NCBI GenBank assembly: GCA_013334765.1
Contig: JAAXWW010000001.1
Location: 39,816-103,815 of the forward strand
Origin: Candidatus Moraniibacteriota bacterium
GTDB taxonomy: Bacteria > Patescibacteriota > Minisyncoccia > Moranbacterales > UBA2206
DNA length: 64,000 nt
Direction: 5' to 3'
Shown here: one piece after another, positions 7,158 through 52,176 of the stretch
Layout of the letters: each line of letters starts with the position of its first letter
Numbering within the stretch: position 1 is the first letter of the stretch
Position numbers and translations under genes: made by a program
Notes under the pieces: generated by a model
Seen by the model: the letters and a program-made list of their open reading frames with translations, nothing else
Told to the model about the DNA's origin: nothing
The model's database searches: none

Positions 7158-7235
7158 GACCCAAGATGAATGTTTGCTAATGGAAGTTCGCGGGAAGCGA
7201 ACTTTGTTTATTAATAAGGATAAAACCATAAAACT

Positions 7236-8537: not shown

Positions 8538-8547
8538 TAACTACTTG

Positions 8548-9489
8548 ATGTCAAAAGATATGGCAAAGACTATTATTATAGGGCACAAAAATCCTGACAC
8601 CGATTCGGTTGTCGCGGCTTTGGCTGCTGAAAGATACTATAAGGAAGTCCTCAAGATAGACGCGAAGGCTTATAGTGCCGGAGAGATCAACAACGAGACC
8701 AAGTTCGTTCTGAAAACGCTTTCATTGAAGGCCCCGAGCCTCTTGAAAGCTGTCAAAAAAGATGACGCAGTTGTCCTGGTCGATCATAACGAATCCGGCC
8801 AGATCGCAGACGGGATATCCGCCTCTCAGATCGCGGGACTGATCGATCATCACAAGATTATTTTCGAAACCGAGCGCCCGATATCCATTCGCGTGGAACC
8901 GATCGGAAGCACCTCATCCCTGATTGCGAAGATGTATTTCGAATCAGGCAGGAAGGTATCCGCAAGCCTTGCCAAACTGCTTCTTTCGGGAATATTGTCT
9001 GACACGCTGGGACTATCCGGACCGACTACGACCGATGAGGACAGGAAAATCGTGAAAGCACTCAATAAGATCGCCAATATCGATATCAAGGAATTCGTCA
9101 GCGAGCTGTTCGCTGCCAAATCCAGCCTCAAAGGGATTTCGATCGAGACGCTGATCACCCAGGATTACAAACTGTTCGAAATGGGGCGCAGCAAGGTCGG
9201 TATCGGAGTCTGGGAGACCACCGATCCTGAAAGCGTGAATGCCGAGAAGGCGAAAATCCTCAAACTACTTTTCGAAAAGAAATTCAAAGAGAATCTGGAT
9301 TACATCTTCTTCTTCGTGGTGGATATCATCAAGCAGGGAAGCGTCCTGTATCTCATAAGCGATAACGAAAGCGAGCTTGCCAAGAAGGTTTTCAAGGGAA
9401 AGATCGAGGATAACGGAATGGTTCTTGAGGGAATAGTTTCCAGAAAGAAGCAGATGGCTCCGGTTCTGACCGCGGCATTAAGCAAATAA
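8548..9489 (+). CDS. ppaC: DHH-family phosphoesterase, most like family II (Mn-dependent) inorganic pyrophosphatase
   Basis: IIIGHKNPDTDSVVAALA N-terminus, DHN and DHH motifs (VVLVDHNE, GLIDHH) and a DHHA2-like C-terminal region. Confidence 0.7.
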   Translation: MSKDMAKTIIIGHKNPDTDSVVAALAAERYYKEVLKIDAKAYSAGEINNETKFVLKTLSLKAPSLLKAVKKDDAVVLVDHNESGQIADGISASQIAGLIDHHKIIFETERPISIRVEPIGSTSSLIAKMYFESGRKVSASLAKLLLSGILSDTLGLSGPTTTDEDRKIVKALNKIANIDIKEFVSELFAAKSSLKGISIETLITQDYKLFEMGRSKVGIGVWETTDPESVNAEKAKILKLLFEKKFKENLDYIFFFVVDIIKQGSVLYLISDNESELAKKVFKGKIEDNGMVLEGIVSRKKQMAPVLTAALSK

Positions 9490-9493
9490 TTTT

Positions 9494-13069: not shown

Positions 13070-13294
13070 ATGTTTGAATTGCTTGCGGCATTAATTCGGC
13101 TTATTGACCTAATGATACCATCCGGGAGCTTCTTTGACAAAACGGGTGCAGTATAATACCATATAAGGCGTATGTAATTCATAATAGCTGTCGGATTTAG
13201 TTGATAAATAATAAAGCAATTAGGCTAAAAAATGGAAATATTTGCTGAGGAAAGCTCGAAACTATGATTTATCAATTGAACAGAAAAAAAACAT

Positions 13295-14824
13295 ATGGGA
13301 ATAGCACTGATTCTTGGAATCGGCGTTTTGTCTTTGGCTATCGGTTCCGTTTCCGGTTATGCCATAAGGAAGTCGATTGCTAAAAAGCAGCTCGACACTG
13401 CCGAAGGTAAAGCGGAAAAGCTCGTAGACGAGGCAGAGAAGAAATCGAAGGAAATAGTCCTTGAAGCGAAGAACAAAGCTGTCGGAATACTTGAGGACAC
13501 GAAAAGGAAAGAAGAAGAGCGCGAGAAGCAGATTCTCCGCACAGAGGAGAGGTTGGAAAAAAGAGAGAGCGTGATCGACAGCAAGATGGCTGAAATCGAT
13601 CGCGGCAGGGCTGCTCTTGAGAAGAAGGCTGAGGAGATCAGGAATATCAGGAAGGAAGTAGAGCAGATAAAAGAACAGGAACTCAAAAGGCTTGAAAAAA
13701 TAGCCGGCCTTTCGCAGGAGGCGGCAAAGCAGATCCTTCTTCAGCTCACTGAAGAGGAAAATCGTGACCTGGTTGCCAAGAGAATGAAACAGCTGGAGGC
13801 GGCCGGAAGCATTGAGCTTGAGAAGAAAGCGCGTGACATAATGACCCAAGCGATTCAGAAATATGCTGGCTCGCACGCAGCGGATGTGACCACCAGCACG
13901 GTGGCTATCCCGTCTGACGAAGTCAAAGGACGAATTATCGGACGCGAAGGAAGGAATATCAAAGCACTTGAAAGGCTCACGGGAATCGAGATCATCGTCG
14001 ATGACACGCCGGAAGCGATTGTCATTTCAGGCTTCGATCCGGTGAGGCGCGAAATCGCCAGGATCGCTCTTGAGAAGCTGGTTTCGGACGGAAGGATCCA
14101 TCCGACCAAGATCGAAGAAGCGGTCGAGTTCGCCAAATCGGAAATCAACAACAAGGTCCGCGAGGCCGGAGAAGCGGCTGCCTATGATGTCGGAGTCGCC
14201 GGGCTGGATCCGAAGCTTGTCAGCATCCTCGGACGCCTTCGCTATAGGACAAGCTATGGACAGAACGCTCTCCTGCATTCTTTGGAGGTGGCTCACCTTT
14301 CAGGCGCGCTGGCAGCTGAGCTCGGAGCGGACGTCAATCTCGCCAAGCGGGCAGGGCTTCTCCATGACATCGGAAAAGCGGTAGATCATGAGGTGCAGGG
14401 CACGCATGTCGAAATCGGCATCAAGATCCTTGAGAAGTTCAAGATCGGCAAGGAAATCATCAACGCGATGAAATCCCATCACGAGGATTATCCTTTCGAG
14501 TCACCGGAATCCATGATCATCTCGGCGGCCGATGCGATTTCTGCCAGCCGTCCCGGAGCAAGGAAAGACACTCTTGAAAACTATCTGAAACGTCTGGGCG
14601 AGCTCGAAGGAGTCGCTAATTCTTTCGAAGAAGTGGAAAAAACCTATGCTATCCAAGCCGGGCGCGAAATCAGGGTGTTCGTGAAGCCGGAGAAGGTGGA
14701 TGATCTGGGCGCGATAAAGCTGGCCCGTTCCATCGCTGACAAGATCGAGAAAGAACTCAAATATCCAGGCGAAATCAAGGTCAATGTCATCCGCGAAACG
14801 AGGGTTACCGAGTTCGCCAGATAG
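13295..14824 (+). CDS. rny: ribonuclease Y
   Basis: N-terminal TM helix, coiled-coil, KH domain (GRIIGREGRNIKALE) and HD domain (LLHDIGKAVDHE); 509 aa. Confidence 0.9.
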   Translation: MGIALILGIGVLSLAIGSVSGYAIRKSIAKKQLDTAEGKAEKLVDEAEKKSKEIVLEAKNKAVGILEDTKRKEEEREKQILRTEERLEKRESVIDSKMAEIDRGRAALEKKAEEIRNIRKEVEQIKEQELKRLEKIAGLSQEAAKQILLQLTEEENRDLVAKRMKQLEAAGSIELEKKARDIMTQAIQKYAGSHAADVTTSTVAIPSDEVKGRIIGREGRNIKALERLTGIEIIVDDTPEAIVISGFDPVRREIARIALEKLVSDGRIHPTKIEEAVEFAKSEINNKVREAGEAAAYDVGVAGLDPKLVSILGRLRYRTSYGQNALLHSLEVAHLSGALAAELGADVNLAKRAGLLHDIGKAVDHEVQGTHVEIGIKILEKFKIGKEIINAMKSHHEDYPFESPESMIISAADAISASRPGARKDTLENYLKRLGELEGVANSFEEVEKTYAIQAGREIRVFVKPEKVDDLGAIKLARSIADKIEKELKYPGEIKVNVIRETRVTEFAR

Positions 14825-14914
14825 CCTTGGAATGCCATTTGCCTTATGTAAGGGAAAAGGAGTAAAATAGAAGGGTAGATAAGACAAAAATATTTTTTGA
14901 AAGGAGGTGAAGTT

Positions 14915-15199
14915 ATGGCTAAAAACATGAACAAGGATATGCTCGTGAGTTCGATCAATGAGAAGACCGATCTTTCCAAGAAGGACATCGAGTTGGTTAT
15001 CGACACTATGACTGACGTCATCACTAAAGCTCTTCAGGGAGGGGACAAGGTCACTTTCACAGGATTCGGCACTTTCAGGATTTCTGACCGCGCTGCCCGC
15101 GAAGGCATCAATCCTCAGACCAAAGAGAAAATCCAGATTCCTGCTATGAAAGTCCCTAAGTTTACTGCTGGGAAGGCTCTCAAGGAAGCTGTCAAATAA
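14915..15199 (+). CDS. hup: DNA-binding protein HU
   Basis: AGGAGG sits 6 nt upstream of the ATG at 14915. The sequence ..FTGFGTFRISDRAAREGINPQTKEKIQIPAMKVPKFTAGKALKEAV matches the HU family. Confidence 0.9.
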   Translation: MAKNMNKDMLVSSINEKTDLSKKDIELVIDTMTDVITKALQGGDKVTFTGFGTFRISDRAAREGINPQTKEKIQIPAMKVPKFTAGKALKEAVK

Positions 15200-15260
15200 T
15201 TTTCTGGGAAAGACGCGCTTTTGATCCGGAACCGCTTTGGCGGCCGGATGATAGAAACAA

Positions 15261-15295
15261 AAACCCGCCCCTATCGTTAGGGCGGGTTTTCGTTT
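15261..15295 (+). terminator. intrinsic terminator after hup
   Basis: AAACCCGCCC-tatcgtta-GGGCGGGTTT followed by a T-rich tail. Confidence 0.7.
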
Positions 15296-15421
15296 CCCGA
15301 TGCTTCTTCTGGAACGAAACGCCCGGGTTATTGACTTAAATATGATTTGCAGGTACCATATCTAGTGTTCGGGAAACAGGAAGGCAGGCGGCGATAGGCA
15401 TACTTTCTGGCCAGTGAACAG

Positions 15422-18374: not shown

Positions 18375-18933
18375 AGACTTTTCGTTTAATTTTTAAAGTG
18401 CTGGTCGGGATACACAAAACCCCGTGCCAGCTAGGTCTTGCGACCCTATATCCGTTTCCAGATATAGCCCAATCACGAGTTGCTGAACGCGGGGTTCAGT
18501 GTCGTGATTGGGTCTTGTATGCCATACCGTAAAATTTTACTTCTACGGGTTAGGCAAATTAAATTGTAACCTTATTATGCCTTATAACTGCCGAAAAGGC
18601 AAAATTTGGCTATTTTTTGACTGCTAAGAAAGGAAATGCTCTAATATGGGCAATCCTACCAAATTACTGATTAGCTCCCTTAAGGCCTAGTCAGGGAGTC
18701 TAGGAGTGAAAAACAGACGGTAATTTTTATCCAAACAAATAGTTTATTTTTGTCCGCTCGTGTCCGTTTATTTTTTTCCAAATCTGTCCCTCTTGATCCG
18801 TTTTTATTTTATACTAAATTAGGCTTATCTTGGCTCAACTCAGGGATTATTAGCACATTTTACTAAATTGAATTATTTTACTGTCCAAATGAACAAAGGA
18901 ACATAAAAAAATGATGTAAAACTGGATAAAAAT

Positions 18934-35307: not shown

Positions 35308-37707
35308 ATGGGAAGAAAAAAAAATACAGGCACAGCAAATAAGAGAGGAAGGAAAAGGAAAGAAGAGGTAGAAGTCGAGGAAGACGAGACCTCCTTTCTG
35401 TCCATAGGATCCGATGCTAAGAGAAGCGTGGCAGCGGTTTTTTTGTTCGCGCTGGGGCTTATTTCGGCACTCGGTTTTTTTGGCGCGTCCGGCGTCATCG
35501 GCAGTTCTCTTAATGGTGCGGTGGGAACGGCGGTCGGCTGGGTGAAATTCATTTTCCCGCTATTCTTGGTCTTGGCTGGGATAATCTTGTTGTTCAGGAA
35601 AGAGACGTCTTTCTATGTGGTCAAGATCCTGGGGCTGCTGATCGTCTTCGTGGCACTCACCGGTTTTTTTCATTGGTTCTATACTGTCAAAGAAATGTCG
35701 AAGTTCGCGTCGCTGGGCGAGGGCGGAGGATATCTTGGATTCGGAGTGGCATATCTGCTGACGAAATATTTGGGAAGCGCCGGAAGCCTGATCATGATAG
35801 TATGCCTTATCATTATCGGTGTCATCGTGGCGTTCGAATTCTCTCTGGCTGATTTCATAATGAAATTCAAGCGCGCTGCCAATCAGAAAGATGAAGTTTT
35901 GGAGAATGGGGATGAGGATGGCATGGAGGATGCTGAAGAATCTTTCGAGGAGGAGGAAAATATCGAAGTTAAAAGCGAGCAGCCTGCTGAAGAGAGCGAT
36001 ATGGACGCAAACATAGCGAAAATAGAATTCGTGGAAGGACGCGATAGGTTCGTAGATAAGAGGCTTCTGAGCGATAAGCATAGCGCGGATTTCAATCAGG
36101 AGAAGAAGCCCGATAATCCGAGCGCCGGTAGGAGTATCTTTTCCCGTCGTTCCAAATGGAAGATGCCTCCGTTCAATCTGCTTGAGAATACGACCGGAGA
36201 GGCCAAAGGCGGGGATGTGGAGCGGAACGCTGAGATTATTAAGAATACCTTGCATAATTTCGGGATCGAGGTCGAGCGGGGAGACATAAAGACTGGTCCG
36301 TCGGTAACGCAATACAGTTTCCGTCCGGCGGTCGGAGTGAAGATCTCAAAGATATTGTCGCTTCAGAATGACCTGGCTTTGGCGCTGGCAGCGCATCCTA
36401 TAAGGATAGAGGCTCCGATTCCTGGCAAGTCCATGATCGGTATCGAAGTCCCGAACAAATCATCATCCATAGTCGGGCTCCGGGGGATTCTTGAAAGCAA
36501 GGATTTCAAGAACCGCTCTTCTAACCTCACTTTGGCACTCGGGGAGGATGTAAGCGGCAGCTATCTTTTCGATTCGCTCGACAGGATGCCTCATCTCATG
36601 ATCGCGGGATCTACCGGAACAGGGAAATCGGTCTCGGTGAACGCTATCATAACCGCGCTGCTTTATCAGAATTCCCCTGATGATCTGAAATTCATCATGG
36701 TCGATCCTAAGCGTGTCGAACTGTCGCTCTATAACGGAATCCCGCATCTCCTGACGGACGTTATCGTCGAGAACAACAAAGTGGTCAATGCCCTCAAGTG
36801 GGCGGTCGGGGAAATGGAAAGGAGATACAAGCTTCTTCAGGAGTCTGGTTCGCGCGACGTCATTTCCTATAAGGAAAAGATAAAGAACGGCGAGAAGAAG
36901 AAATGCGTCGACAAGGAAACCGGGGAAGTAAGTGAAGAGGAATATGAATATTTGCCGTATATCGTCATCCTTATCGACGAGCTTGCTGATCTTATGGGAA
37001 GCCATGGCAAGGAAGTGGAGGGCGCGATCGTGCGTATCGCTCAAATGGCCCGCGCGGTCGGGATCCATCTGATCGTTTCCACTCAGCGTCCTTCGGTCGA
37101 AGTCATTACCGGGCTTATCAAAGCCAACATAGCAACCCGCATAGCCTTCCAGGTGGCATCCCAGATCGACTCGAGGACGATTATCGATATGGCAGGCGCT
37201 GAGAAGCTCCTGGGGCGCGGTGACATGCTCTACGCGAGCGCTAGCTCTCCGAAGCCTGTTCGCATCCAAGGAGTCTATGTGAGCGAAACAGAAGTCAAGA
37301 AAGTGGTCAATTTCATAAAAGAGCAGAAAGAGGCTCTTGGTATTGGGAAAGATGACGGAGAGGATGATGAGGCGATAACCGACAACGGTGGTCAGAAATC
37401 GGACGGGGCCCAGTCTTTCAGCCTTGATGCCATAACATCCGATTCGGATCAGGAGGATAGCCTGTATGAGGCAGCGAAAGCCGAAGTCATGCGCGCGAAG
37501 AAAGCTTCCGCCTCGCTTCTTCAAAGGCGCCTCCGCGTCGGATACGCGAGAGCGGCGAGGCTTCTTGATATCCTTGAAGACAACGGGGTTGTCGGACCTT
37601 CCGAAGGGGCGAAGCCTCGCGAGGTATACGGAGCGGACGGGCCTTCCGAAATCAGCTATGATGATTCGATAGATGATCAAGAGAAGAGGGATAAATGGAA
37701 TATGTAG
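35308..37707 (+). CDS. ftsK: DNA translocase FtsK/SpoIIIE
   Basis: N-terminal TM helices, an acidic linker, a motor domain with Walker A GSTGTGKS and IVIDELADLM, and a C-terminal gamma domain; 799 aa. Confidence 0.9.
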   Translation: MGRKKNTGTANKRGRKRKEEVEVEEDETSFLSIGSDAKRSVAAVFLFALGLISALGFFGASGVIGSSLNGAVGTAVGWVKFIFPLFLVLAGIILLFRKETSFYVVKILGLLIVFVALTGFFHWFYTVKEMSKFASLGEGGGYLGFGVAYLLTKYLGSAGSLIMIVCLIIIGVIVAFEFSLADFIMKFKRAANQKDEVLENGDEDGMEDAEESFEEEENIEVKSEQPAEESDMDANIAKIEFVEGRDRFVDKRLLSDKHSADFNQEKKPDNPSAGRSIFSRRSKWKMPPFNLLENTTGEAKGGDVERNAEIIKNTLHNFGIEVERGDIKTGPSVTQYSFRPAVGVKISKILSLQNDLALALAAHPIRIEAPIPGKSMIGIEVPNKSSSIVGLRGILESKDFKNRSSNLTLALGEDVSGSYLFDSLDRMPHLMIAGSTGTGKSVSVNAIITALLYQNSPDDLKFIMVDPKRVELSLYNGIPHLLTDVIVENNKVVNALKWAVGEMERRYKLLQESGSRDVISYKEKIKNGEKKKCVDKETGEVSEEEYEYLPYIVILIDELADLMGSHGKEVEGAIVRIAQMARAVGIHLIVSTQRPSVEVITGLIKANIATRIAFQVASQIDSRTIIDMAGAEKLLGRGDMLYASASSPKPVRIQGVYVSETEVKKVVNFIKEQKEALGIGKDDGEDDEAITDNGGQKSDGAQSFSLDAITSDSDQEDSLYEAAKAEVMRAKKASASLLQRRLRVGYARAARLLDILEDNGVVGPSEGAKPREVYGADGPSEISYDDSIDDQEKRDKWNM

Positions 37708-37790
37708 TCATGTGACACGGAACCGGTTTCATGTCCCATGAATCATGCTATATGGCAAGAAGCGGTTTTACAAAAAAAAGAGTCGGCACT

Positions 37791-38774
37791 ATGACTCTTG
37801 GGGAGAAGCTCAGACATCTTCGCGAGGACAGGCGTATCACTCTCCTTGAAGCCTCGCGCGGAACCAAGATCCAGGTCAGATACCTGGAGTTCCTAGAGGC
37901 TGGCGATTATGATTCTCTTCCGGCGGATGTCTATGTGCGGGGATTCCTGAGGAGTTATGGGGATTTCCTGGGCGTCGATGAACATATCCTAGTGAAGCTT
38001 TATGAAAAGGAAAAAGGCATCAAGGAGAATCTCGCCAAAAGCAGGAATGCCGGAGCCAATAACCGTTTCGTGAGTCCGGTCAATATCTCATCTTTCGTTT
38101 TCACGCCCAAAAAGCTGGCAATCGCGCTGCTTGGACTGCTGGTTGCTTCGGCGATATTCTATCTTTATAGGGAAGTGGGATCGTTTTCGAACGATCCGCG
38201 CCTGATTATTTTTTCTCCTTTGAACAATTCTGAAATCAGCGGCAACTCCGTTGTCGTCGATGGCGTGACTGATAAGGATTCGAAACTGTTCATAAACGGA
38301 CAGCCTATTCTGGTTGACGATGAAGGGCGGTTCCGCGAGGAGCTTACGCTCCAGTCAGGAGTGAATACTATAAGCGTGCATTCTGAGAACAAATTCGGGA
38401 AAGAGAAGACCGAGACGATTTCGGTCCAGGGAAAGCACGAGGAGGCATCTGATCCGGGTTCCGATTCGGGATCAGTGGATAATTCGCAAAGCTCTTCTTC
38501 GAGCTCTTCAAGCTCGGAAAACGGCAAGCTGCAGTTGGAGCTCCGGGTCGATCCGGGTCCGGTCTGGATGAATGTCGAGGCAGACGGGAAGCTGGTCTTT
38601 AGCGGAACGATGCTGGCAGGGGCCGTACAGAGTTTCAGCGCGGATGACAAGATAGTTGTCAATTCAGGGCGTGGAAACGCCACTTTCGTGAGATTCAACG
38701 GCAAGGATGCGGGAGCTCTCAGCGCTGATCCTGGCGTTGTGAAGGATGCGGTTTTTGATAAAAATACCAAGTAG
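37791..38774 (+). CDS. rodZ: RodZ-like cytoskeleton-associated protein (HTH + TM + DUF4115-like C-terminus)
   Basis: XRE-type HTH (LGEKLRHLREDRRITLLEAS), a TM helix, a Ser-rich linker and a C-terminal domain LELRVDPGPVWMNVEADGK..FVRFNGKD. Confidence 0.65.
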   Translation: MTLGEKLRHLREDRRITLLEASRGTKIQVRYLEFLEAGDYDSLPADVYVRGFLRSYGDFLGVDEHILVKLYEKEKGIKENLAKSRNAGANNRFVSPVNISSFVFTPKKLAIALLGLLVASAIFYLYREVGSFSNDPRLIIFSPLNNSEISGNSVVVDGVTDKDSKLFINGQPILVDDEGRFREELTLQSGVNTISVHSENKFGKEKTETISVQGKHEEASDPGSDSGSVDNSQSSSSSSSSSENGKLQLELRVDPGPVWMNVEADGKLVFSGTMLAGAVQSFSADDKIVVNSGRGNATFVRFNGKDAGALSADPGVVKDAVFDKNTK

Positions 38775-39084
38775 GAAATAAAAACTTGACAGTGATAATG
38801 GGTGGGTGATAAAATATCACTGTAATCGGTTTTTGATTCGTTGCGTATAATCAGCTTACTGCGATATCTTTGTTCGAATGATTGTTGTTCCTGATTTCAT
38901 ACGCCTTTATTTTTTGCCAAGGAGACTTCCGTCGTTTTTTATTTTTTGGATTTTTGAAGCATCCTAAGCCAAAAAATAAAGAGCCTTATGGTTGCCTCTG
39001 ATTGGTTTCCGGTTGTTCCTTTATTTTTATTTTAATTGCAGGCTGGTATAAATAAGTCATAATCATAATCGTTTTAGAAACGCT

Positions 39085-40143
39085 ATGGCAAACATAAAAA
39101 ACAAAGAGATGGACAAGAAAGTGGACAACGTTGTTTCCGAGATCCGTGAAAAATTCGGAGAGGGAATAATCATGAAGCTGGGGGATGTGAAGAAGGTCGA
39201 TGTGGAGTCGATTCCGACCGGATCGATTTCGCTTGATTTGGCGTTGGGAATCGGCGGAATCCCAAGGGGTCGCGCGATCGAAATATATGGACCGGAATCT
39301 TCCGGGAAAACAACGCTTACTCTTCACTTGATTGCCAATCTGCAGAAAACCGGTGGCGTGGCTGCCTTTGTGGATGCGGAGCATGCTCTCGATCCTGAAT
39401 ATGCCAGGAAAATAGGAGTGAATATCAATGACCTTCTAATTTCTCAGCCGGATTATGGCGAGCAGGCATTGGATGTGGTCGATGCTCTTGCGTCTTCCGG
39501 TCAGGTCGGATTGATCGTGGTCGACTCTGTGGCTGCTTTGGTTCCGAAAGCGGAAATCGAAGGCGATATGGGAGATCATCATGTCGGCAGGCAGGCGCGT
39601 CTTATGTCGCAGGCTCTCAGGAAGATAACGCCGACTCTTTCAAAAACGAATTGCACGGTTATCTTTATCAATCAGATAAGGATGAAAATCGGAGTGATGT
39701 TCGGAAACCCTGAGACGACAACCGGAGGAGAAGCGCTCAAATTCTATTCATCCGTCCGCATCGAAGTGCGGCGAAGCGCGCAGATCAAGAAAGGCGAGGA
39801 TATCGTCGGGAACCGTACCAAGATCAAGGTAGTGAAGAACAAGGTGGCGCCGCCTTTCAAAACGACTGAATTCGATATCATGTATAACGAAGGGATTTCT
39901 TCCGAAGGGGATGTTCTCGACACGGGAGTGAAATACGAAGTGGTCACCAAGAAGGGCAATTCCTATTCTTTCGGAGAGGAGAAACTGGGCGTCGGTCGCG
40001 AAGCGGCCAAGGCCTATCTCAAAGGACAAAAAGGAAAGGTGGATGAGATTGCCAAAAAGATCATGGAAAAGACCAAAGAGATAGAGGCCGGCGAGATGCT
40101 TCCGGAGGCATCTGAGGAGCCAGCGGAAGCCAAGAAAAAATAG
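39085..40143 (+). CDS. recA: recombinase RecA
   Basis: Walker [10 protein letters not shown], the L1/L2 loops, [32 protein letters not shown]; 352 aa. Confidence 0.95.
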
Positions 40144-40253
40144 TTAGAATTCTTACAGAAAAGCGTCCCGCCACGGTGAGGCGCTTTTCTTGATTTATTT
40201 CTCTTCTTTGGCTAGACTGGAAGAAAGTTAATTTTTTATGTTTTCTAAAGTTT

Positions 40254-40868
40254 ATGGAAAATCATCCAAAGAAAGAAAGGACGCTGGTTATCATCAAGCC
40301 GGACGGAGTGCAAAGAACCCTCATTGGGGAAATCATCAAACGCTATGAGAGAGTGGGGCTCAAAATGGTCGCCCTTAAGATGCTTGCCGCTACTGAAGAG
40401 ATGGCGACGAAGCACTATTATGAAGTGGGAGGAGATGAATGGCTCGAAGAAGTGGGAAGGAAAGCCGCGGCGGCTTATGAGAAGAAAGGGATGAAATCTC
40501 CGTATCCGACTTTCAAAGATAACGGAATCGCTATCATGAAAGCCAATGCGAAATATCTGAGTTCCGGTCCGGTCATCGCGATGATCTGGCAAGGGAACAA
40601 TGCGACCGCATTGGTCAGGAAAATCACCGGAAGCACCGAGCCGGCATCATCTGATATGGGAACAATCCGCGGAGATTTCACCTTGGATACATATATGATT
40701 GCCGATACTGATGAAAGAAGCATCAGGAACCTGATTCATGCTTCTGGAAACACGGAAGAGGCGGAAAAGGAAATTCCGATCTGGTTCAAACCGGAAGAAA
40801 TCCTGAGCTATCGCCTTATCGCCGATGAGATTCTTTACGATATCAATCTGGACGGGATATTGGAATAG
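40254..40868 (+). CDS. ndk: nucleoside-diphosphate kinase (long form with insertion)
   Basis: ERTLVIIKPDGVQR, IRGDF.., NLIHASGN (active-site His context). At 204 aa it is longer than the typical ~140 aa. Confidence 0.8.
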   Translation: MENHPKKERTLVIIKPDGVQRTLIGEIIKRYERVGLKMVALKMLAATEEMATKHYYEVGGDEWLEEVGRKAAAAYEKKGMKSPYPTFKDNGIAIMKANAKYLSSGPVIAMIWQGNNATALVRKITGSTEPASSDMGTIRGDFTLDTYMIADTDERSIRNLIHASGNTEEAEKEIPIWFKPEEILSYRLIADEILYDINLDGILE

Positions 40869-41013
40869 GTTAAGGCTCATACAAACGTTTGAAAAAATGC
40901 TCGCATTCTTCAGAAATGCGGGCATTTTTTATTTTCCATAGGCTGTAGGCAGATATTATTTTGCACATCATCTCATTTGATGTATAATAGGGTTGTTATT
41001 ATAGAAAATAAAA

Positions 41014-41304
41014 ATGTACTACGAGCCGAAAAAAATAAATTATAATAAACTAGTCATTCTCGTTATTGTTATTGTGACGCTGGCAATGTTTTTGATTATT
41101 GCTGTGCCGCTGATTGGCAATAAAAACAACAACAAAGAAACTGACTTGACAGCGCCGAACGATTATGAAAAAGATGAACGGCAGAAGAACTTGAGCGAGC
41201 AAGTGGATAAAATTGAAAGCATAAAATCAAGCATGACTGACAAGAACGACAAGACGCTTGAACAGCAAATGAAAGAGATGGACACAATTAGGAATGGCAA
41301 ATAA
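41014..41304 (+). CDS. hypothetical membrane-anchored protein
   Basis: 96 aa with an N-terminal TM helix and a charged tail. Confidence 0.45.
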   Translation: MYYEPKKINYNKLVILVIVIVTLAMFLIIAVPLIGNKNNNKETDLTAPNDYEKDERQKNLSEQVDKIESIKSSMTDKNDKTLEQQMKEMDTIRNGK

Positions 41305-41338
41305 ATGTTTAGGCGATAATAATTTTAAAATAATAAGC

Positions 41339-42064
41339 ATGAGAATGAAAATAAAAAAAGCGATACTAGCTATTCCGGCAGTGTCGTCATGGATGATTCT
41401 CGGAATAATTATCGGGGCATGGGTGCATTTTTCCAACGCATGGGTCGGGCCGACCGAGTCTCCTGCGGGCGGGAATGTCGGAGCTCCGATAAATACCAGT
41501 CAAAATACTCAGGTCAAATCCGGAGGATTGGGGATAGGCGGACTTCTTCAAGTAGCTGGAAATGGATTTTTTCAATTGAATAATAACGTAGCTCAAGCGG
41601 ATCTTACCCCGGCTCCGGTTGGTACTGCTCCTGAGCCAGGCTCAGTCCTTACAGCGGTTGATACGAATGGTACTGCTGCTTGGGTTAAAGGTGTAAGCGC
41701 TGTGGCTGGGAGTCCCGCTTTCACTCTAGTTAGCGCGGGTAATATCAGTTGTCCAAGTGGTTATACTACATTCAAATCACACAATGATGCTCTTGAAAAC
41801 TACACTGTCCATGTCTTGATTTGTGCTAGCTCAAATTCCCCTTCGTCCTATCAGGACGAGTGCTTTTCTAATATTCCTGGCGCTAACGACTATGGAAGCG
41901 GTACTGCCCCAAATGTCAATACGAAGTGTCCCGATAGCTGTGCTTCCGGGTATAAAGTTGTTGCGGATAGTAGCATGAAAACGGGAACTTGGTGGGGAAG
42001 CGGCGATTCTGTCAATAATCCTAAAATCAACGTGATGGCTACACGCGTTTGTGTCAAGGAATAA
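41339..42064 (+). CDS. secreted/membrane-anchored Cys-rich hypothetical protein
   Basis: Signal/TM segment. Gly-rich and Cys-containing C-terminal region. Start chosen at MRMKIKK after the upstream stop. Confidence 0.45.
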   Translation: MRMKIKKAILAIPAVSSWMILGIIIGAWVHFSNAWVGPTESPAGGNVGAPINTSQNTQVKSGGLGIGGLLQVAGNGFFQLNNNVAQADLTPAPVGTAPEPGSVLTAVDTNGTAAWVKGVSAVAGSPAFTLVSAGNISCPSGYTTFKSHNDALENYTVHVLICASSNSPSSYQDECFSNIPGANDYGSGTAPNVNTKCPDSCASGYKVVADSSMKTGTWWGSGDSVNNPKINVMATRVCVKE

Positions 42065-44355: not shown

Positions 44356-46443
44356 ATGGCAAGAAAGGAACCGATTGAAAAATATCGAAATATCGGAATC
44401 ATCGCGCATATCGATGGCGGGAAAACGACCACCACGGAGCGCATTTTGTTTTACACAGGAATAACCCACAAGATCGGAGAAGTGCATGAAGGCGCGGCTA
44501 CTATGGACTGGATGGAGCAGGAAAGGGAGCGCGGAATCACTATAACTTCTGCTGCTACGACCTGTTTTTGGAAAGATCACCAGATCAACATCATCGATAC
44601 CCCGGGACATGTCGACTTCACAGTCGAAGTGGAGAGATCCCTTCGCGTGCTTGACGGCGCCGTCGTCATTTTCGATGGGAAGGAAGGAGTCGAGCCGCAA
44701 TCGGAAACGGTTTGGAGGCAGGCTGACAAATACAATGTTCCAAGGATCTGCTTCGTGAACAAGATCGACAAAGAAGGTGCCGACTTCTATTTTGTCTTGA
44801 AAACCATCTGGGATCGTCTCACCCCGAATGCCATCGCTCTCCAGATTCCGATCGGAGAAAGAGGCGACTTTTCCGGTGTTGCGGATCTCGTCAAGATGAA
44901 AGCCTATTCATTTGAAGGCGATATGGGAGAAAAGGTTGTCGAAGGAGAAATCCCTGCCGAGCTCATGGACAAGGCCAAGGAGTGGAGAGAGAAAATGATC
45001 GAAAAGATTTCTGAGACTGACGAAGCCTTGACTGAGAAATATCTGAGCGGGGAAGAAATAACCGAGGCCGAATTGAAAGCGGCTCTGAGGCGCGCGGTCA
45101 TCGACGTCAAGCTCATCCCGGTTTTCACGGGAACGGCTCTTCGCAACAAAGGGGTGCAATTAGTGCTGGATGCAGTGGTTGACTATCTGCCGGCTCCGAC
45201 CGATGTGGCCGCTCCCCACGCGACCGATGTCAAAGATGAAACCAAGGATATCGAAATCAAGCAGGCCGATGAAGCGCCTTTTGCCGCTTTGGCTTTCAAA
45301 GTCGCAACCGATCCTTTTGTCGGGCAGTTGACATTCTTCCGGGTATATTCAGGAGTATTGAAAGCCGGATCATATATCCTCAACTCGTCGAAGGGAGAAA
45401 AGGAAAGGGTAGGACGCATCATGCAGATGCATTCCAATCACAGGGAGGAAATTTCCGAGATATATGCCGGCGGAATCGGCGCATTGGTCGGAATGAAAAA
45501 CACGACTACCGGAGACACGCTTTGCGATATCGACAAGCCGGTTCTTCTCGAGTCGATTACTTTCCCGGAACCGGTCATCTCGATCGCGATCGAACCGAAA
45601 ACCAAAGCCGACCAGGAAAAGATGGGCGTGGCGCTCAGGAAGCTTGCAGAGGAAGATCCTACTTTCAAAGTCCACACTGACGAAGAAACTGGGCAGACGA
45701 TCGTTTCCGGGATGGGCGAGCTTCATCTGGACATCATTGTCGACCGCATGAAGCGCGAATTCAAAGTTGAAGCCAATATCGGACAGCCTCAGGTCGCATA
45801 TCGCGAAACCATCAGAACGAAAGCGGAAGCGGAAGGGAAATATATCAAACAGTCCGGTGGACGCGGGCAATACGGTCATTGTTGGATCCGCTTGGAACCG
45901 CAAGAGCCGGGCGAAGGATTCGAATTCGTTGATGAGATCAAAGGAGGAGTCATTCCTCAGGAATATATCACTCCGATCGGAAAAGGAGTCAAGGAGGCTA
46001 TGGACAACGGAGTCGTGGCAGGATACCCGATGGTGGATATCAAAGCGACCGTGTATGACGGATCGTTCCATGAAGTCGACTCATCCGAAGCGGCCTTCAG
46101 GATTTCCGGATCCATGGCTTTCAAGGAAGCGGCTCGTCGAGCCAACCCGGTCCTTCTGGAGCCTATCATGAAGGTCCAGGTGACTACTCCGGAACAGTTC
46201 ATGGGTGATGTCGTCGGAGACTTGAATTCCAAGCGCGGAATCATCAGGGAGATGAATGACCGCGGCGAAGGGAACGCCAGAGTCAAGCTTATCGATGCCG
46301 AAGTGCCGCTTTCCGCGATGTTCGGCTATACCACTACTCTTCGTTCCATGACCCAGGGTCGCGCGACATCCTCGATGGAGTTCGGTCATTATGCCGAAGT
46401 TCCGAGGAATGTAGCGGAGGAAATCGTCGGAGGGAAGAAATAA
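44356..46443 (+). CDS. fusA: elongation factor G
   Basis: [28 protein letters not shown] and domains II-V; 695 aa. Confidence 0.95.
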
Positions 46444-46528
46444 CAAGGTGAAACACGTTTCAAATAGAAAGACAACCCCGAGCAATCGGGGTTGTTTCTA
46501 TCTTGTTTTTATGCTAGAATAAGGACAT

Positions 46529-46756
46529 ATGAATTTTAGACAAGCCCTATTTTGGGATACGAATCCCTCTAAAATAGACCCGAAGAAAAACGCCGGATAT
46601 GTAATTGAGCGGGTTTTGGATTTGGGCAATGACAAAGAGGTCAAGTGGGTGCTGAAAAATTATAGCAAAGCAACACTCAAAAAAACGGTTGCTAAATCAA
46701 GGTCTTTATCTCCGCGAACAAAATCATTATGGAAGTTGATACTCAAAATGAAATAA
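46529..46756 (+). CDS. small protein translationally coupled to the AbiEii-like gene (candidate antitoxin/partner)
   Basis: 75 aa. It overlaps the downstream gene start by 28 nt. No recognised fold. The antitoxin role is inferred from the operon arrangement only. Confidence 0.4.
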   Translation: MNFRQALFWDTNPSKIDPKKNAGYVIERVLDLGNDKEVKWVLKNYSKATLKKTVAKSRSLSPRTKSLWKLILKMK

Positions 46757-47403
46757 GCTGGCATCTTTCCGCTTTGCCGCCAAAAACCAAAAAAGCCCTG
46801 GACTTTTTGTCCGCTCAGAAATGGCTGGAAAAATCAAGTTGGTATTTGGCGGGCGGCACTGCGCTTGCCCTTCAAGCAGGCCACAGAAAGTCCGTTGACT
46901 TGGATTTTTTTACTCAAGAAAGAGATTTCAATGATGTCACATTGCTGAATCATTTTGCTGGAAATAATGACTGGAAGATCACCATCAATCAAGAGGGTAC
47001 GGTTTATGGGGAATTGTTCGGGGCTAAGATCAGTTTTATTGCGTATCCCTTTTTTATTCCTGAGGGTTATGCAAAATACGGTTCATTGAAAGTGATCCGA
47101 TCTGTCGATGTTGCAGTGATGAAAATCATTGCGATTTCCCAGCGCGGCCGCAAGCGCGACTTCTTTGATCTTTACTGGTGCGCGAAAAATGTCGAACCTC
47201 TTGAGATAACGGCGAAGCGTCTTAAAAAACAATATCCGGCAGTGGCGCATGACTATCATCATATATTGAAAAGCTTGGTATATTTTGCCGATGCTGAGGA
47301 CGATCCGATGCCGGAAATAAAATTTAAGGCAAACTGGAGCGAAGTGAAGAAGTTCTTTATGAGGGAGGTCCCGGAGCTAGCGCATAAATTACTGGCGCCA
47401 TAA
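46729..47403 (+). CDS. nucleotidyltransferase, AbiEii/AbiGii toxin family (DUF1814-like)
   Basis: NTase signature AGGTALALQAGHRKSVDLDFF (hG[GS]..DhD) and a downstream Asp/charged cluster; 224 aa. Confidence 0.65.
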   Translation: MEVDTQNEISWHLSALPPKTKKALDFLSAQKWLEKSSWYLAGGTALALQAGHRKSVDLDFFTQERDFNDVTLLNHFAGNNDWKITINQEGTVYGELFGAKISFIAYPFFIPEGYAKYGSLKVIRSVDVAVMKIIAISQRGRKRDFFDLYWCAKNVEPLEITAKRLKKQYPAVAHDYHHILKSLVYFADAEDDPMPEIKFKANWSEVKKFFMREVPELAHKLLAP

Positions 47404-47579
47404 ACTAAACTCCAGTCAACTCAGAAGTCCTGCCACGGCGCTTTTCTTGCACGTTTTTCATATTGTGATAAAATATCTTCATAAAACAAAAAATCCATGA
47501 TTTCCGATATCAAAAAAAATCCGATAAGAAAAACTTCCATGACAGCCGGCCGGCTTCCGGTTTTTTGCGCGGATATGCC

Positions 47580-47590
47580 GGGGGGGGGGG
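47580..47590. repeat. homopolymeric G tract (about 11 G)
   Basis: CCG GGGGGGGGGG CTT read directly. It lies 140 nt upstream of the start of the large surface protein gene. The 12-nt palindrome AGCCGGCCGGCT lies just upstream. Confidence 0.8.
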
Positions 47591-47728
47591 CTTAAAAGCG
47601 GAGCTTTCGGATTTTCAGCTGAAATAAGGGATTTTTTCGAATCAGGATATTTAACCATATAGGAACCGTCATCCGGTTCTTTTTTTTGTTTTCAAAAATA
47701 AAAATAATCCAAGATATCGACAAAAAAT

Positions 47729-50404
47729 ATGAATCGGAAAATCACATTGATCGCTGCCGGTGTTCTCATGATCCTGGCCACCGGGATTTTCTTCATGAAA
47801 AAGGGAAATGGGAATGCGAGTTCGAATCTTGCAATCCCGCAGGAACCGCAAAGCTCTGATCCATCCGGCATCGTCGCGGGGGTGGAGGATTCTTCGCAAA
47901 ACGATCCGGTCGCTTCCGAAGGAAGCGGATCTTTGGATCCGGCAGCCCAACCCGAGCCCGACGGAGGATTCCTCGGCAAGCTGACTTCCGTTTTCGATGA
48001 GATAGCCAGCCTCAAGAAGAAGCTGGGAAAACTGGACGACAAATACGGCGACGGATACCTGGAACTCCGAAGCGATTCGATCACGAACGACAACATAAAG
48101 AAGAACGCGGTCAATTCGAGCAGCATCGAGAACAAATCGATCCGGGAGGAAGACCTGAAAGACGGAAGCATCTCCGATCCGCGACTGATTCCGGACGGCT
48201 TCATCGAATCGCTGAAAATAAAGGACGCCACCATCACCGATGCCGATATATCGCCGGACGCGCAGATCGATTCTTCAAAAATAAACCTGGGCGGATACGC
48301 GCTTGCTAACCTGCCGACCGACGAAGAAAAAGCCAAATTGGGCGAGATCGTCGATGACGCCCAGACCAGTATCGCGATCGGTGACAAGAACATCAGTCAG
48401 ATTCACAATCAAAACACGGACACGGGCACGAATTCCAATACATTCACGATCGGCAACTCCGGGCACGATCTCTCCCTGGTTTTCGGCGCTTCTTCAGAAA
48501 AACTGACCTATGACGATTCATCCGGCGCTTTTGCCCTTTCCGACAAACTAAGCCTTTCTTCTAATAAGCTGACCGATCTTGGGGTTCCGACTGCCGACAC
48601 GGACGCGGCTACTAAGGGATATGTGGACAACCAGCTTTCGACAGAAATCGGCAATCTCAAATGGAAGGATCCGGTCGGCTCGTTTTCCGACTTGTCCGAT
48701 TGCGACGACAGCCATGATGGGCAGGCCAGACTAGTGAAGGACGAAAACTGGATCTATCGCTGCGACAAGGACGATTCGGTTTGGCACAAGGTGGCCAATG
48801 TGGCGTCGGTCGATCACAATGATCTCAAAAACAGGGACGCGTCCGGTTCTCACCCGGCTTCGGCCATCAGCTTTTCCGATCATGGCACGCTCAATTCGGA
48901 CGATGTCCAGGATGCGATCAATGATCTTGACGACAATACCTTAAAGCTCAACCCGACAGGCAGCCAGACCATCGACTATGATTCGAACATATCGACGGTC
49001 ATCAAGATGTATTCCAGTCAGGCCGATGCTCCTTTCAGGATCGAAAATTCCAGCGGAAGCAGCAAATTCGCGATCACAAAGGACGGACTTGTTTCCACTC
49101 CGTCGGTCACGAATGATTCCATCGTTGACGCTTCGATCACAGGAACCAAGCTGGCTTCGAACATCTCCATAGCGACTACCGGCTCTGTTTCGGCCAGCAC
49201 CGTCGCTTCGACTATCGCGACCGGAACCAAGCCGTTCACGGTCGCTTCCGTCACCAAGGTGGACAATCTGAACGCCGACCTTATCGACGGGATGAACTCG
49301 TCGCTTGCGGGAGGAGCGAGCGTCATCCTGGCCACCGATACCAGCGGCAACCTGACCCTTGCCAATGGGAAGATTTCGGTCGAAACGATCAGGTTCGAGG
49401 CGGAAACGACCGCTCCGACCGCCGAGGAAGGGAAGGCCTACTATGATTCCAATGACAAGACTTTCAAAGTATACAATTCCCAGGGAGACGGATATATCGA
49501 TCTGGTAGCTGACCCGCACATAGCGCCGTCGCACTGTCCCGACGGGTACGTCCCTGTTCCAGGCGATGCCAGATACGGCACGGCGGGCGGATTCTGCGTC
49601 ATGAAATATGAGGCGAAATGCGCCGCCACAAGCGATGCCGCTACCGGTCTCATGACTCCGGCGACCGCCTATCAGACCTATGACAATGCCACAACCGCCT
49701 GCACCTCGGCCAACTCGAAACAGGTGGTTTCGACCGCTTCGGGCTATCCGATCGCCAATATCAATCAAACCAACGCCAAGGCCTACTGCGTTTCCTCCGG
49801 CGGCCATCTCATCACCAACAACGAATGGATGACTATCGCCAGGAATATGGAAAAACAGCCTTCCAACTGGACCGGCGCCTCGGTCGGCACCGGCGGGCTT
49901 TATCGGGGACATAGCGACAACAGTCCGGCAACCGCGCTCTCCGCCAGCACGGATGACGGAGACGGCTATTCGGGAACGGGGGATTCCGGGACATCGGAAG
50001 AACGGAGGACGATGACGCTCAGCAATGGGGAAACGGTGTGGGACATGTCGGGCGATGTCTGGGAATGGGCCAGCGATACCATCCGGCGGAAAGATCAGCC
50101 GCATTCGACGGCCGGATCGGGCAATTCTTTCGGTTGGAAGGAGTTCACCACTTTGGACGACTATGGGCAGATGAGCTACGCCAATCTCCGTCCGGGCAAC
50201 CCGGCCTGGAATTCCAGCCAGAATGCGGGTCAGATCTATACTTACAATCCGAGCGGGGATACGGGCAATACGGTCTACGCTTTCTTACGGGGCGGCGATT
50301 GGGTCTATGGGTCGAATACGGGGCTGTTCGGGCTGAATCTGGGCTATGCCCCCGCCAACACGTACAGCAGCTTCGGTTTCCGTTGCGTTTCCCCAGGGGA
50401 TTAG
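47729..50404 (+). CDS. large membrane-anchored surface protein with fibre-like repeats and C-terminal FGE-sulfatase/C-type-lectin-like domain
   Basis: N-terminal TM anchor, an 891-aa Ser/Thr/Asp/Gly-rich beta-rich body and C-terminal motifs GDVWEWASD, LRGGDWVYGS, FGFRCVS typical of the SUMF1/FGE-sulfatase fold. Confidence 0.6.
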   Translation: MNRKITLIAAGVLMILATGIFFMKKGNGNASSNLAIPQEPQSSDPSGIVAGVEDSSQNDPVASEGSGSLDPAAQPEPDGGFLGKLTSVFDEIASLKKKLGKLDDKYGDGYLELRSDSITNDNIKKNAVNSSSIENKSIREEDLKDGSISDPRLIPDGFIESLKIKDATITDADISPDAQIDSSKINLGGYALANLPTDEEKAKLGEIVDDAQTSIAIGDKNISQIHNQNTDTGTNSNTFTIGNSGHDLSLVFGASSEKLTYDDSSGAFALSDKLSLSSNKLTDLGVPTADTDAATKGYVDNQLSTEIGNLKWKDPVGSFSDLSDCDDSHDGQARLVKDENWIYRCDKDDSVWHKVANVASVDHNDLKNRDASGSHPASAISFSDHGTLNSDDVQDAINDLDDNTLKLNPTGSQTIDYDSNISTVIKMYSSQADAPFRIENSSGSSKFAITKDGLVSTPSVTNDSIVDASITGTKLASNISIATTGSVSASTVASTIATGTKPFTVASVTKVDNLNADLIDGMNSSLAGGASVILATDTSGNLTLANGKISVETIRFEAETTAPTAEEGKAYYDSNDKTFKVYNSQGDGYIDLVADPHIAPSHCPDGYVPVPGDARYGTAGGFCVMKYEAKCAATSDAATGLMTPATAYQTYDNATTACTSANSKQVVSTASGYPIANINQTNAKAYCVSSGGHLITNNEWMTIARNMEKQPSNWTGASVGTGGLYRGHSDNSPATALSASTDDGDGYSGTGDSGTSEERRTMTLSNGETVWDMSGDVWEWASDTIRRKDQPHSTAGSGNSFGWKEFTTLDDYGQMSYANLRPGNPAWNSSQNAGQIYTYNPSGDTGNTVYAFLRGGDWVYGSNTGLFGLNLGYAPANTYSSFGFRCVSPGD

Positions 50405-50567
50405 GGTTTGATCAGGAATCTTGAATCTGATAATCTATAATCTTTTTTTTCGCCGAATTTTCGCAGAGAGCGGAAATTTTGCGTTTAAGTGAGGAATCTT
50501 GACATTGACATGAAACAGTAACTGCATTATTATTTTTCTATAAAACAAAAAAGAAAATCCATTTATT

Positions 50568-50849
50568 ATGCTCGACAAAAAGATTAAAGAGGCCCTCGAG
50601 CTTCTCGGAGGCAAAGCCGTAATAAAAGACTGTGAAGAATGCTATATCCTGCTCACACTGGACGAGTTCAGGAGGATGAAGCAGGAAGGCGTTTCGGGCT
50701 TGACAAAGGAGGAACTGATTGATAAGATAAACAATGACATCGCAAGCTGGAAGTTTTCCCAGGAAGAGAAGAAAGTGGAGGCATTCGACCCGGAAGCGGT
50801 GCTGGATGAAAAGGAAAACGAAGTGAAATACGAGAAGGTCAGCGACTAG
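50568..50849 (+). CDS. small protein, Phd/YefM antitoxin-like pattern (orphan)
   Basis: 93 aa. KAVIKDCEECYILLTLDEFRRMKQ resembles the ILITRNGE.AVLMSLEEYESL core of Phd/YefM. This is a weak call. Confidence 0.35.
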   Translation: MLDKKIKEALELLGGKAVIKDCEECYILLTLDEFRRMKQEGVSGLTKEELIDKINNDIASWKFSQEEKKVEAFDPEAVLDEKENEVKYEKVSD

Positions 50850-50982: not shown

Positions 50983-52176
50983 ATGGCAGCAGAACAATTT
51001 CAAAGGACGAAGCCGCACGTCAATGTCGGAACCATCGGTCATGTCGACCACGGAAAAACCACTCTGACAGCAGCTATCCTGCACGTGCTTGCTTTCCAGG
51101 GGAAAGCTAAGGAGAAAGGAATCGATGAAATCGACAAGGCTCCTGAAGAAAGGGATCGCGGAATCACTATCGCGACCGCTCATTGCGAATACGAATCAGA
51201 CAAGCGCCACTACGCTCATGTGGACTGCCCAGGACATGCTGATTATATCAAGAACATGATTACTGGTGCGGCTCAGATGGACGGAGCGATCCTGGTTGTT
51301 GCCGCTACTGACGGCCCTATGCCTCAGACCCGCGAGCACATCCTTCTTGCCAAGCAGGTCGGAGTTCCTGAAATCGTCGTTTTCCTCAACAAAGTCGACA
51401 TGGTTGATGATCCTGAATTGGTTGACTTGGTCGAAGCTGAAGTCCGCGAACTTCTCACCAAATATGAATTCGATGGAGACAACGCCAAAGTCATCAAAGG
51501 TTCAGCTCTCAAGGCTCTTGAATCCAAATCTGCCGATGACGAGGCCGCCAAGCCTGTTCTGGATCTTATCAATGCTTTGGATGAGAAGATTCCTGAGCCG
51601 GTCCGCGAAACTGACAAGCCTTTCCTTATGCCGATCGAAGATATCTTCACGATTGAAGGAAGAGGAACAGTGGTTACCGGAAGAATCGAAAGAGGAACCA
51701 TCAATGTCAATGAGGAAGTTGAAATCGTCGGACTCAGGCCAACCCAGAAGACTGTCGTTACCGGAATCGAGATGTTCAACAAGACTCTTGACAAGGGAAC
51801 AGCTGGAGACAATGCCGGAGTGCTTATCCGCGGAATCAAGAAAGAAGACGTGGAAAGAGGACAGGTTCTGGCTAAGCCGGGCTCAATCACCCCTCACACC
51901 GAATTCGAATGCGAAGTATATATCCTAACCAAGGAGGAAGGCGGAAGGCACACTCCATTCTTCAAAGGATACAAGCCTCAATTCTATGTCAGGACGACTG
52001 ACGTTACCGGAGAAGTGATTCTGCCGGAAGGATCTGAAATGGTGATGCCTGGAGATACGGTAAGCTTCCAAGTGAAGCTCGGCTCCCCTGTCGCCATGGA
52101 AGAGGGAATGAGATTCGCTATCCGCGAAGGAGGAAGGACTGTGGGCGCTGGAGTCGCGACTAAGATCCTGAAATAA
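50983..52176 (+). CDS. tuf: elongation factor Tu
   Basis: [26 protein letters not shown] and a C-terminal beta-barrel; 397 aa. Confidence 0.95.

Follow-up and report, generated by a model that had tools for sequence, protein, structure and literature searches.

The fusA-tuf junction of a Candidatus Moraniibacteriota bacterium: a mobile DUF6922-AbiEii gene pair, a putative surface-protein gene, and a conserved neighbor of tuf

Between fusA and tuf, the genes for elongation factors EF-G and EF-Tu, the genome of a Candidatus Moraniibacteriota bacterium carries two overlapping genes for a 75-aa DUF6922 protein and a 224-aa AbiEii-type (DUF1814) nucleotidyltransferase, a putative toxin-antitoxin (TA) cassette, followed by genes for an 891-aa and a 93-aa protein. 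We analyzed this interval in a 64,000-nt stretch of contig JAAXWW010000001.1 (GCA_013334765.1), hereafter the window, whose positions serve as coordinates throughout. DUF1814 toxins (AbiEii, MenT) are well-studied translation-blocking enzymes, and the antitoxin families known for them are AbiEi/COG5340, COG4861, and MenA1. A preliminary description of the window had taken all four genes for one accessory insertion of about 4.5 kb into a normally contiguous fusA-tuf block. Here, we compare the interval with related loci and find that the gene pair is a unit mobile among genomes of the candidate phyla radiation (CPR), that the fusA-tuf junction of relatives is empty or differently filled, and that three separate origins probably meet at this locus.

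Genes and signals between fusA and tuf

The genes across the junction are, in order, rpsL, rpsG, fusA, a 75-aa open reading frame (ORF), a 224-aa ORF, a spacer, an 891-aa ORF, a 93-aa ORF, tuf, and rpsJ, with 4,539 nt between the fusA stop and the tuf start. The same sample is represented by an independent Logan assembly (L001; the loci compared below carry such L numbers), which matches the window over 15,986 nt without a single mismatch, and since it was assembled independently, the locus is not an assembly artefact. The features located in this section all lie on the forward strand, apart from the spacer, to which no strand is assigned, and the ORF list bore out the ORFs and the gene overlap of the preliminary description.

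On the left, fusA (44356-46443; ORF list and Pfam domains in L001) ends the rpsL-rpsG-fusA block and forms the border of the insertion. It is followed at 46470-46497 by a terminator-like hairpin of 12 pairs, six of them G-C, with a loop of 4 nt and a T-rich tail, which both the terminator and the inverted-repeat scans picked up. An extended -10 element, TGCTAGAAT (46512-46520), lies 8 nt 5' of the start of the DUF6922 gene (46529-46756), the putative antitoxin or partner gene, which overlaps the gene of the putative toxin, the DUF1814/AbiEii nucleotidyltransferase (46729-47403), by 28 nt. The 325-nt spacer that follows (47404-47728) holds a run of 11 G residues (47580-47590) and, as had been noticed before, a hairpin with a T8 tail, which the terminator scan placed at 47661-47690 and ranked below the hairpin after fusA. 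The G11 run is the sole G/C homopolymer of at least 8 nt in the 64-kb window and is the same in L001. As a whole, the spacer folds no better than its shuffles (z-score -0.69), and neither Rfam searches (gathering and E-value modes) nor tRNA scans gave a match in the fusA-tuf interval.

The remainder of the interval is taken up by the gene for the 891-aa protein (47729-50404; Pfam PF03781), which is predicted to be a surface protein with an anchor at its N-terminus and an FGE-sulfatase-like domain at its C-terminus, and by the 93-aa gene (50568-50849), which forms the right border of the insertion and is preceded by a sigma-70-like promoter, TTGACA-17-TATTAT (11/12; promoter scan), at 50505-50533. 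Thereafter come tuf (50983-52176; ORF list and L001 gene table), rpsJ, and the S10 operon.

The DUF6922-AbiEii cassette and its movement among CPR genomes

The 224-aa protein is a member of the AbiEii family, as had been proposed from its GGTALAL..HRKSVDLDFF motif, which we confirmed. It scored 62.6 bits against PF08843 (AbiEii/DUF1814; cut-off 22.5 bits, E 7e-17) and matched 14 PADLOC AbiEii models, and the identical protein is named by NCBI as a Moranbacteria AbiEii/AbiGii toxin family protein. For AbiEii, motifs I-IV have been defined, comprising hG[GS]...R...DhD, a Lys-to-Arg motif whose Lys lies among hydrophobic residues, and a +DxxD pentad, and mutating each of the motifs abolishes toxicity (Dy et al. 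2014, PMC3985639). Among 31 aligned homologues of the 224-aa protein, G42, G43, S55, D57, D59, K132, R143, and D147 are invariant and R53, R139, and D144 nearly so (at least 90%); judged from this alignment, the four catalytic motifs and the serine that would serve as phospho-acceptor are intact. This serine belongs to an invariant S55-V-D57, two residues before the first catalytic Asp, and its position appears to be that of the phospho-acceptors that silence other DUF1814 toxins, namely MenT1 T39 (before D41), MenT3 S78 (D80), and AbiEii T65 (D67) (PMC10435456, PMC11375011, bioRxiv 10.64898/2026.01.19.700257).

The partner was rightly described as far smaller than canonical AbiEi antitoxins and is unrelated to them: the one substantial match of the 75-aa protein is to Pfam DUF6922 (PF21956, E 6.3e-19), all 41 of its aligned homologues match the same family, and the protein gave no AbiEi match in Pfam, NCBIfam, or PADLOC. 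Nor did searches of all PDB chains, with the protein singly or as a profile, return a sequence match. Its AlphaFold2 (AF2) model, which has a pLDDT of 91, predicts an extended N-terminus and four short helices, for which a fold search found no relative in the PDB, and neither sequence nor fold similarity to MenA1 was detected. Sixteen of the 75 residues are invariant, many of them charged or aromatic, and R4, F8, W9, and D10 mark an invariant N-terminal segment. Labels of PvuRts1I-like_N, PADLOC mREase_II, and phrog_9489 for this protein were dropped, as they came from weak matches (E at least 0.016) in 5 of the 41 homologues.

Pairing of the two genes is obligate in the loci that we examined. 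Our metagenome scan yielded 80 loci with a homologue of the 224-aa protein, 79 of which had enough upstream sequence, and a homologue of the 75-aa protein lies immediately upstream in every one (79/79). The genes overlap by 28 nt in 45 and by 25 nt in 12 of 70 distinct cassettes, and in 64 of these 70 a TAnnnT sequence stands 3-20 nt before the ATG of the 75-aa gene (mode 6 nt), with a TG-extended -10 element in 38. Thus, the DUF6922-AbiEii pair behaves as one unit, and a -10 element abutting the first start codon suggests that antitoxin and toxin would share a leaderless or near-leaderless mRNA. In the window, the cassette is self-contained and occupies about 0.95 kb (approximately 46498-47450).

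This unit is mobile among CPR genomes. With the same overlap, the pair lies beside ABC transporter genes (L002), NUDIX and radical SAM genes (L005), or MazEF and MNT genes (L008), and one contig (L099) holds two cassette copies within 5 kb (1426-2297 and 6078-6949). Direct repeats bracket 26 of 78 cassettes, against 2 of 229 mismatched flank-pair controls; the repeat-bracketed loci include L103, L112/L114/L117, L152, L166, L171, L108, L157, L131, L176, and L147. Fourteen of the bracketing repeats are 29-128 nt long with 82-100% identity. The repeats differ by locus, consist of sequence from the target site, such as gene 3' ends and terminators, and put the cassette ends some 40-64 nt ahead of the first start codon and 7-49 nt past the second stop. 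The ~1-kb cassette encodes no recombinase, and it may spread without one of its own, leaving target duplications of 29-128 nt. The single plasmid match to the cassette was a distant one, from Aquifex.

Two cassette neighborhoods held further elements. A TA island in L120 (2737-5666; also in L118) consists of a HepT-like gene, a second AbiEii gene with a 91-aa ORF, and then the DUF6922-AbiEii cassette; the second AbiEii protein is short and distant (219 aa, 29% identical), and the 91-aa ORF that precedes its gene is unrelated; a likeness to DUF6922 seen by eye found no support with hhalign (probability 0.2). In L002, a pair resembling a diversity-generating retroelement, made up of a bAvd accessory protein and a reverse transcriptase (8116-9541), lies 1.4 kb 3' of the cassette.

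The junction in relatives, the 891-aa gene, and the neighbor of tuf

The preliminary description had called fusA and tuf normally contiguous, which holds for about 40 non-CPR genomes recovered with EF-G, where the two genes are 34-200 nt apart, but not in general for CPR relatives, where a homologue of the 93-aa gene often separates them. Three related loci with fusA orthologues 82-86% identical to that of the window are informative here. In L094, a 605-kb Moranbacteria contig, rpsL, rpsG, and fusA are followed after 10 nt by a 92-aa homologue of the 93-aa protein (7001-7279) and then by tuf and rpsJ, so that, on gene order, this locus represents the uninterrupted state of the junction. Because fusA there runs straight into the 93-aa homologue and tuf, both the gene pair and the gene for the 891-aa protein count as accessory insertions at the junction, as had been claimed; because the 93-aa homologue so often stands between fusA and tuf in CPR relatives, the accessory part amounts to about 4.1 kb (46444-50567) rather than the whole 4.5 kb. 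In the closest relative found, L011 (EF-G 86% identical), fusA and the 93-aa homologue enclose three unrelated genes (12254-15417), encoding a 204-aa protein, a 532-aa multi-pass membrane protein, and a 241-aa ORF. In L171 (EF-G 82% identical), the gene next to fusA is the first of a DUF6922-AbiEii cassette, and a direct repeat of 94 nt (91% identical) that contains the fusA terminator flanks this cassette; its proteins are 64-66% identical to those of the window, and more than 100 cassettes from elsewhere are closer to the window cassette than this one is. The contents of these three loci, one empty and two filled differently, indicate that the junction of fusA and the 93-aa gene is a hotspot filled independently in different lineages.

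A single insertion, on the other hand, does not fit the composition of the interval. G+C content at third codon positions (GC3) is 0.42 and 0.47 in the cassette genes, 0.68 in the 891-aa gene, and 0.53-0.60 in core genes; with the cassette set off from the 891-aa gene, and both of them from the core, the interval does not read as one insertion, and two separate acquisitions are likely. Just past the cassette, positions 47448-47500 are about 60% like 50505-50562, where the 93-aa gene has its promoter and leader, and share TAAAACAAAAAA..TCCAT with that stretch; the likeness is too weak to rely on, and it may be a decayed duplication from the insertion of the 891-aa gene.

The 891-aa protein, whose gene has a GC of 0.55, had been described as a giant anchored surface protein. 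An anchor is consistent with its single N-terminal hydrophobic helix (aa 4-24), while at 891 aa the protein is large rather than giant. Between the anchor and a C-terminal domain lie about 600 aa rich in Ser, Asp, Gly, and Thr, within which aa 272-316 resemble phage head-decoration or fiber proteins (phrog_2647, E 4e-5). The C-terminal domain matches PF03781 (FGE-sulfatase) at aa 646-797 (39.3 bits, cut-off 23.3, E 7.7e-10), with a weak match of the same region to human SUMF2 (1y4j), and the domain also matches phrog_2889 (E 1e-14). Further, a phage contig with genes for portal, head protease, and HNH proteins encodes a 461-aa protein whose C-terminal part shares 43% identity with aa 603-887. 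Relative to FGE-sulfatase/SUMF1-like proteins and phrog_2889, then, the 891-aa protein is alike in its C-terminal domain and differs in adding about 600 aa behind an N-terminal membrane anchor. Because the FGE-sulfatase-like domain is common to phage proteins, the 891-aa protein is probably a binding or adhesion protein at the cell surface, and a binding role for the domain seems likelier than an enzymatic one. No homologue was found in the fusA-tuf loci that could be checked (L094 and L011), and the L171 contig ends before the corresponding position.

The 93-aa gene, which had been thought to complete the insertion as an orphan, is conserved directly 5' of tuf across CPR loci. Homologues occupy this place in L011, L013, L016, L017, L018, L020, L036, and L091-L095. 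All examined Moranbacteria loci that carry the gene (five from three look-ups, plus L011) have it directly 5' of tuf, and in some Moranbacteria it stays with tuf where fusA is not nearby. More distant homologues lie 5' of tuf in loci labelled Falkowbacteria, Uhrbacteria, Saccharibacteria, and unclassified Patescibacteria; the CPR loci L012, L014, L022, L024, and L027 are without one. In all 13 loci examined, the gene has fusA (or inserted genes) on one side and tuf on the other, and no toxin gene adjoins it. Its promoter has a similar counterpart (TTGACA...TAAGAT) in L011, and its GC3 falls at the upper end of that of core genes, clearly unlike that of the TA cassette. To judge from these comparisons, the 93-aa gene is a conserved, toxin-less resident beside tuf and no part of the insertion.

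A likeness to Phd/YefM antitoxins, also put forward in the preliminary description, is partly borne out at the level of the family and not for the window protein itself, for which Pfam, NCBIfam, and PADLOC gave no match and PHROG none of significance. The family is large: the protein has 204 close homologues, all annotated as hypothetical, and a profile of its Moranbacteria members found 389 clusters among 1.84 billion representatives. Fifty-five of 107 family representatives match PF02604 (Phd/YefM) at E up to 0.01 (best 7e-9), six distant CPR homologues from fusA-tuf loci reach 16.8-28.5 bits, under the cut-off of 29.8, and the matches span only profile positions ~10-50, so that "Phd/YefM-like" seems a fair term for the N-terminal region of the family. 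The matching region is a helix-strand-strand-helix, and the C-terminal half is predicted to be helical and then disordered, as in Phd. It differs in that the window protein has no Pfam match, no first strand, and no adjacent toxin, in being fixed next to tuf across CPR, and in having a KINxDIAxW helix and acidic tail of its own; the family helix consensus is GLTExELLDKINRDIAxWK, with N55 and W61 invariant, and the last residues of the tail are an aromatic one and Glu. For the 93-aa gene, the helix is given as GLTKxELIDKINNDIASWK and the tail as ending Y-E. AF2 modeled the protein with low confidence (pLDDT 64.8) in a helix-strand-strand-helix-helix order, of which the first four elements agree with that part of the Phd fold while its first strand is absent; Foldseek with this poor model returned YefM/RelJ only at E 2-3, which is uninformative.

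Phd has as its toxin partner Doc, which phosphorylates EF-Tu and so inactivates it (PMC9207808), and this makes the place of the 93-aa gene beside tuf suggestive. As speculation, the family might be an undescribed, CPR-wide, domesticated antitoxin-type protein tied to EF-Tu or to tuf-S10 expression, an idea that we rate as rather unlikely; such a protein could, for example, regulate the tuf-S10 operon or shield EF-Tu from Doc/Fic-type kinases.

Elsewhere in the window, the stretch between rpoC and rpsL (35308-42064) encodes FtsK, a RodZ-like protein, RecA, NDK, two hypothetical proteins, and an M50 peptidase; since Sua5 and Ddl stand where the hypotheticals would be in L094, this stretch varies between relatives too. 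At 18433-18556 on the reverse strand, the sequence matches the LOOT RNA family over its full length (RF03000; 79.9 bits, E 2e-13).

Proposed model, alternatives, and comparison with known systems

We consider it fairly probable that the interval combines three origins: a mobile DUF6922-AbiEii TA cassette, a separately acquired 891-aa gene, and a resident 93-aa gene. In this model, the cassette would have inserted at a recombination hotspot just past the fusA terminator and would be transcribed from its own promoter downstream of that terminator, with the 75-aa protein translated first and the overlapping toxin gene translationally coupled to it. By analogy with MenT1, MenT3, and MenT4, free 224-aa enzyme would add nucleotides to the 3' acceptor ends of tRNA and thereby halt translation; the DUF6922 protein would bind the enzyme and either occlude its active site or, probably, position S55 for auto-phosphorylation. 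We infer the toxicity, neutralization, phosphorylation, and tRNA target of the pair, like the role of the surface protein, and take the biochemical steps by analogy from studied relatives.

Several points weigh against this account. First, neither the 224-aa protein nor its family profile has a sequence match to any solved MenT or AbiEii chain among all PDB chains, and the equivalences of the motifs and of S55 therefore rest on Pfam membership and residue pattern. Second, no direct repeat flanks the window copy, so its own insertion is read from comparison with relatives only, and IMG/VR viral contigs yielded no homologue of the cassette. Third, both proteins are more conserved than is usual in TA pairs, with 60-77% identity across CPR classes, which would fit a conserved cellular function too. 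Finally, DUF6922 is named in no paper that our literature search found, and toxicity and neutralization would be ascribed by analogy for every DUF6922-linked member.

As for what the cassette does for its host, it might act mainly in abortive-infection phage defense and not in selfish addiction or stabilization, which we regard as a real if doubtful possibility. AbiE was found as an abortive-infection system (PMC3985639), papers on CPR bacteria count it among their defenses (PMC8080830, PMC13059738), and some cassettes lie in TA- or defense-rich stretches; yet a 2026 study of AbiE saw no anti-phage phenotype under its conditions (bioRxiv 10.64898/2026.01.19.700257), the neighbors in the window are translation genes and a surface protein, and PADLOC recovers only the toxin half of AbiE at the locus.

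The conservation of the pair could also mean that it is a two-subunit CPR enzyme, for instance a nucleotidyltransferase that modifies RNA or protein and has a small subunit for specificity or regulation. Such an enzyme would account for the partner being about as conserved as the catalytic protein (62-71% against 64-76% identity in the same loci) and for its many invariant residues. Against it stand the position of the pair, which varies by genome, the presence of two copies in some loci, the MazEF, MNT, and HepT-like neighbors, the target-derived flanking repeats, and the absence of the pair from the junction in close relatives; housekeeping genes behave otherwise, and we think a conserved enzyme of this kind quite unlikely.

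In MntA/HepT systems, the nucleotidyltransferase is the antitoxin, and if the roles were reversed here as in MNT-HEPN pairs, the 224-aa protein would silence a small toxic DUF6922 protein, whose invariant charged and aromatic residues and lack of a known fold relative would allow for this. We find the reversal very unlikely, as all DUF1814 members studied (AbiEii, MenT1, MenT3, and MenT4) are toxins, the gene order and translational overlap match the antitoxin-first norm of AbiE, and the 224-aa protein keeps the phospho-acceptor Ser. That the whole 4.5 kb is one island, its 93-aa gene the orphan Phd/YefM antitoxin of a degraded TA pair, draws on the Phd/YefM-like N-terminal region of the family and the missing toxin gene, and it is scarcely credible given homologues directly 5' of tuf in Moranbacteria and several other CPR lineages, the uninterrupted L094, the GC3 of the 93-aa gene unlike that of the cassette, and the different compositions of the cassette and the 891-aa gene.

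DUF6922 would be a further partner family of DUF1814 toxins, strictly linked to a compact toxin subfamily with thousands of CPR sequences. Since classical defense and addiction systems are considered scarce in CPR bacteria, an abundant, mobile module of about 1 kb would be a useful test case; it also touches on the control of a single toxin fold by diverse antitoxins and on the ways in which small cassettes move in CPR genomes. The fusA/tuf junction emerges as an insertion hotspot in Moranbacteria, and the most intriguing by-product of the analysis is the conserved Phd-like gene beside tuf, a neighbor missed by current annotation. Already known were the presence of AbiE in CPR genomes (PMC8080830, PMC13059738), the name given to the toxin by NCBI, and the existence of a short non-AbiEi antitoxin (MenA1); not described before are the DUF6922 partner family, its strict link to the compact, CPR-abundant toxin subfamily, and the target-duplicating insertions.

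Among known systems, the pair can be set beside AbiE of Lactococcus lactis and Streptococcus agalactiae, a type IV system for which type VII was recently proposed. Both have a DUF1814 toxin with motifs I-IV and a Ser or Thr before the Asp, and both are bicistronic, with the partner gene first and the genes overlapping. They differ in the partner, which here is a 75-aa, predicted all-helical DUF6922 protein, whereas AbiEi has ~200-300 aa (COG5340) with a winged-helix DNA-binding domain and a C-terminal antitoxin domain; the toxin here is also shorter (224 aa), the overlap is 28 nt instead of 4 nt, and sequence matches to solved members are lacking. The pair can also be set beside MenAT1 (MenA1/MenT1, Rv0078B/Rv0078A) of Mycobacterium tuberculosis, whose 68-aa MenA1 is unrelated to AbiEi (PMC10435456). 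MenA1 consists of one long and one short helix, in contrast to the extended N-terminal segment and four short helices modeled for DUF6922. By binding MenT1, it causes the toxin to phosphorylate itself on the Thr that precedes the catalytic Asp. As a minimal DUF1814 toxin (195 aa, PDB 8an4) with a short non-AbiEi antitoxin, like the pair described here, MenT1 offers the best functional analogy for the DUF6922-AbiEii cassette.

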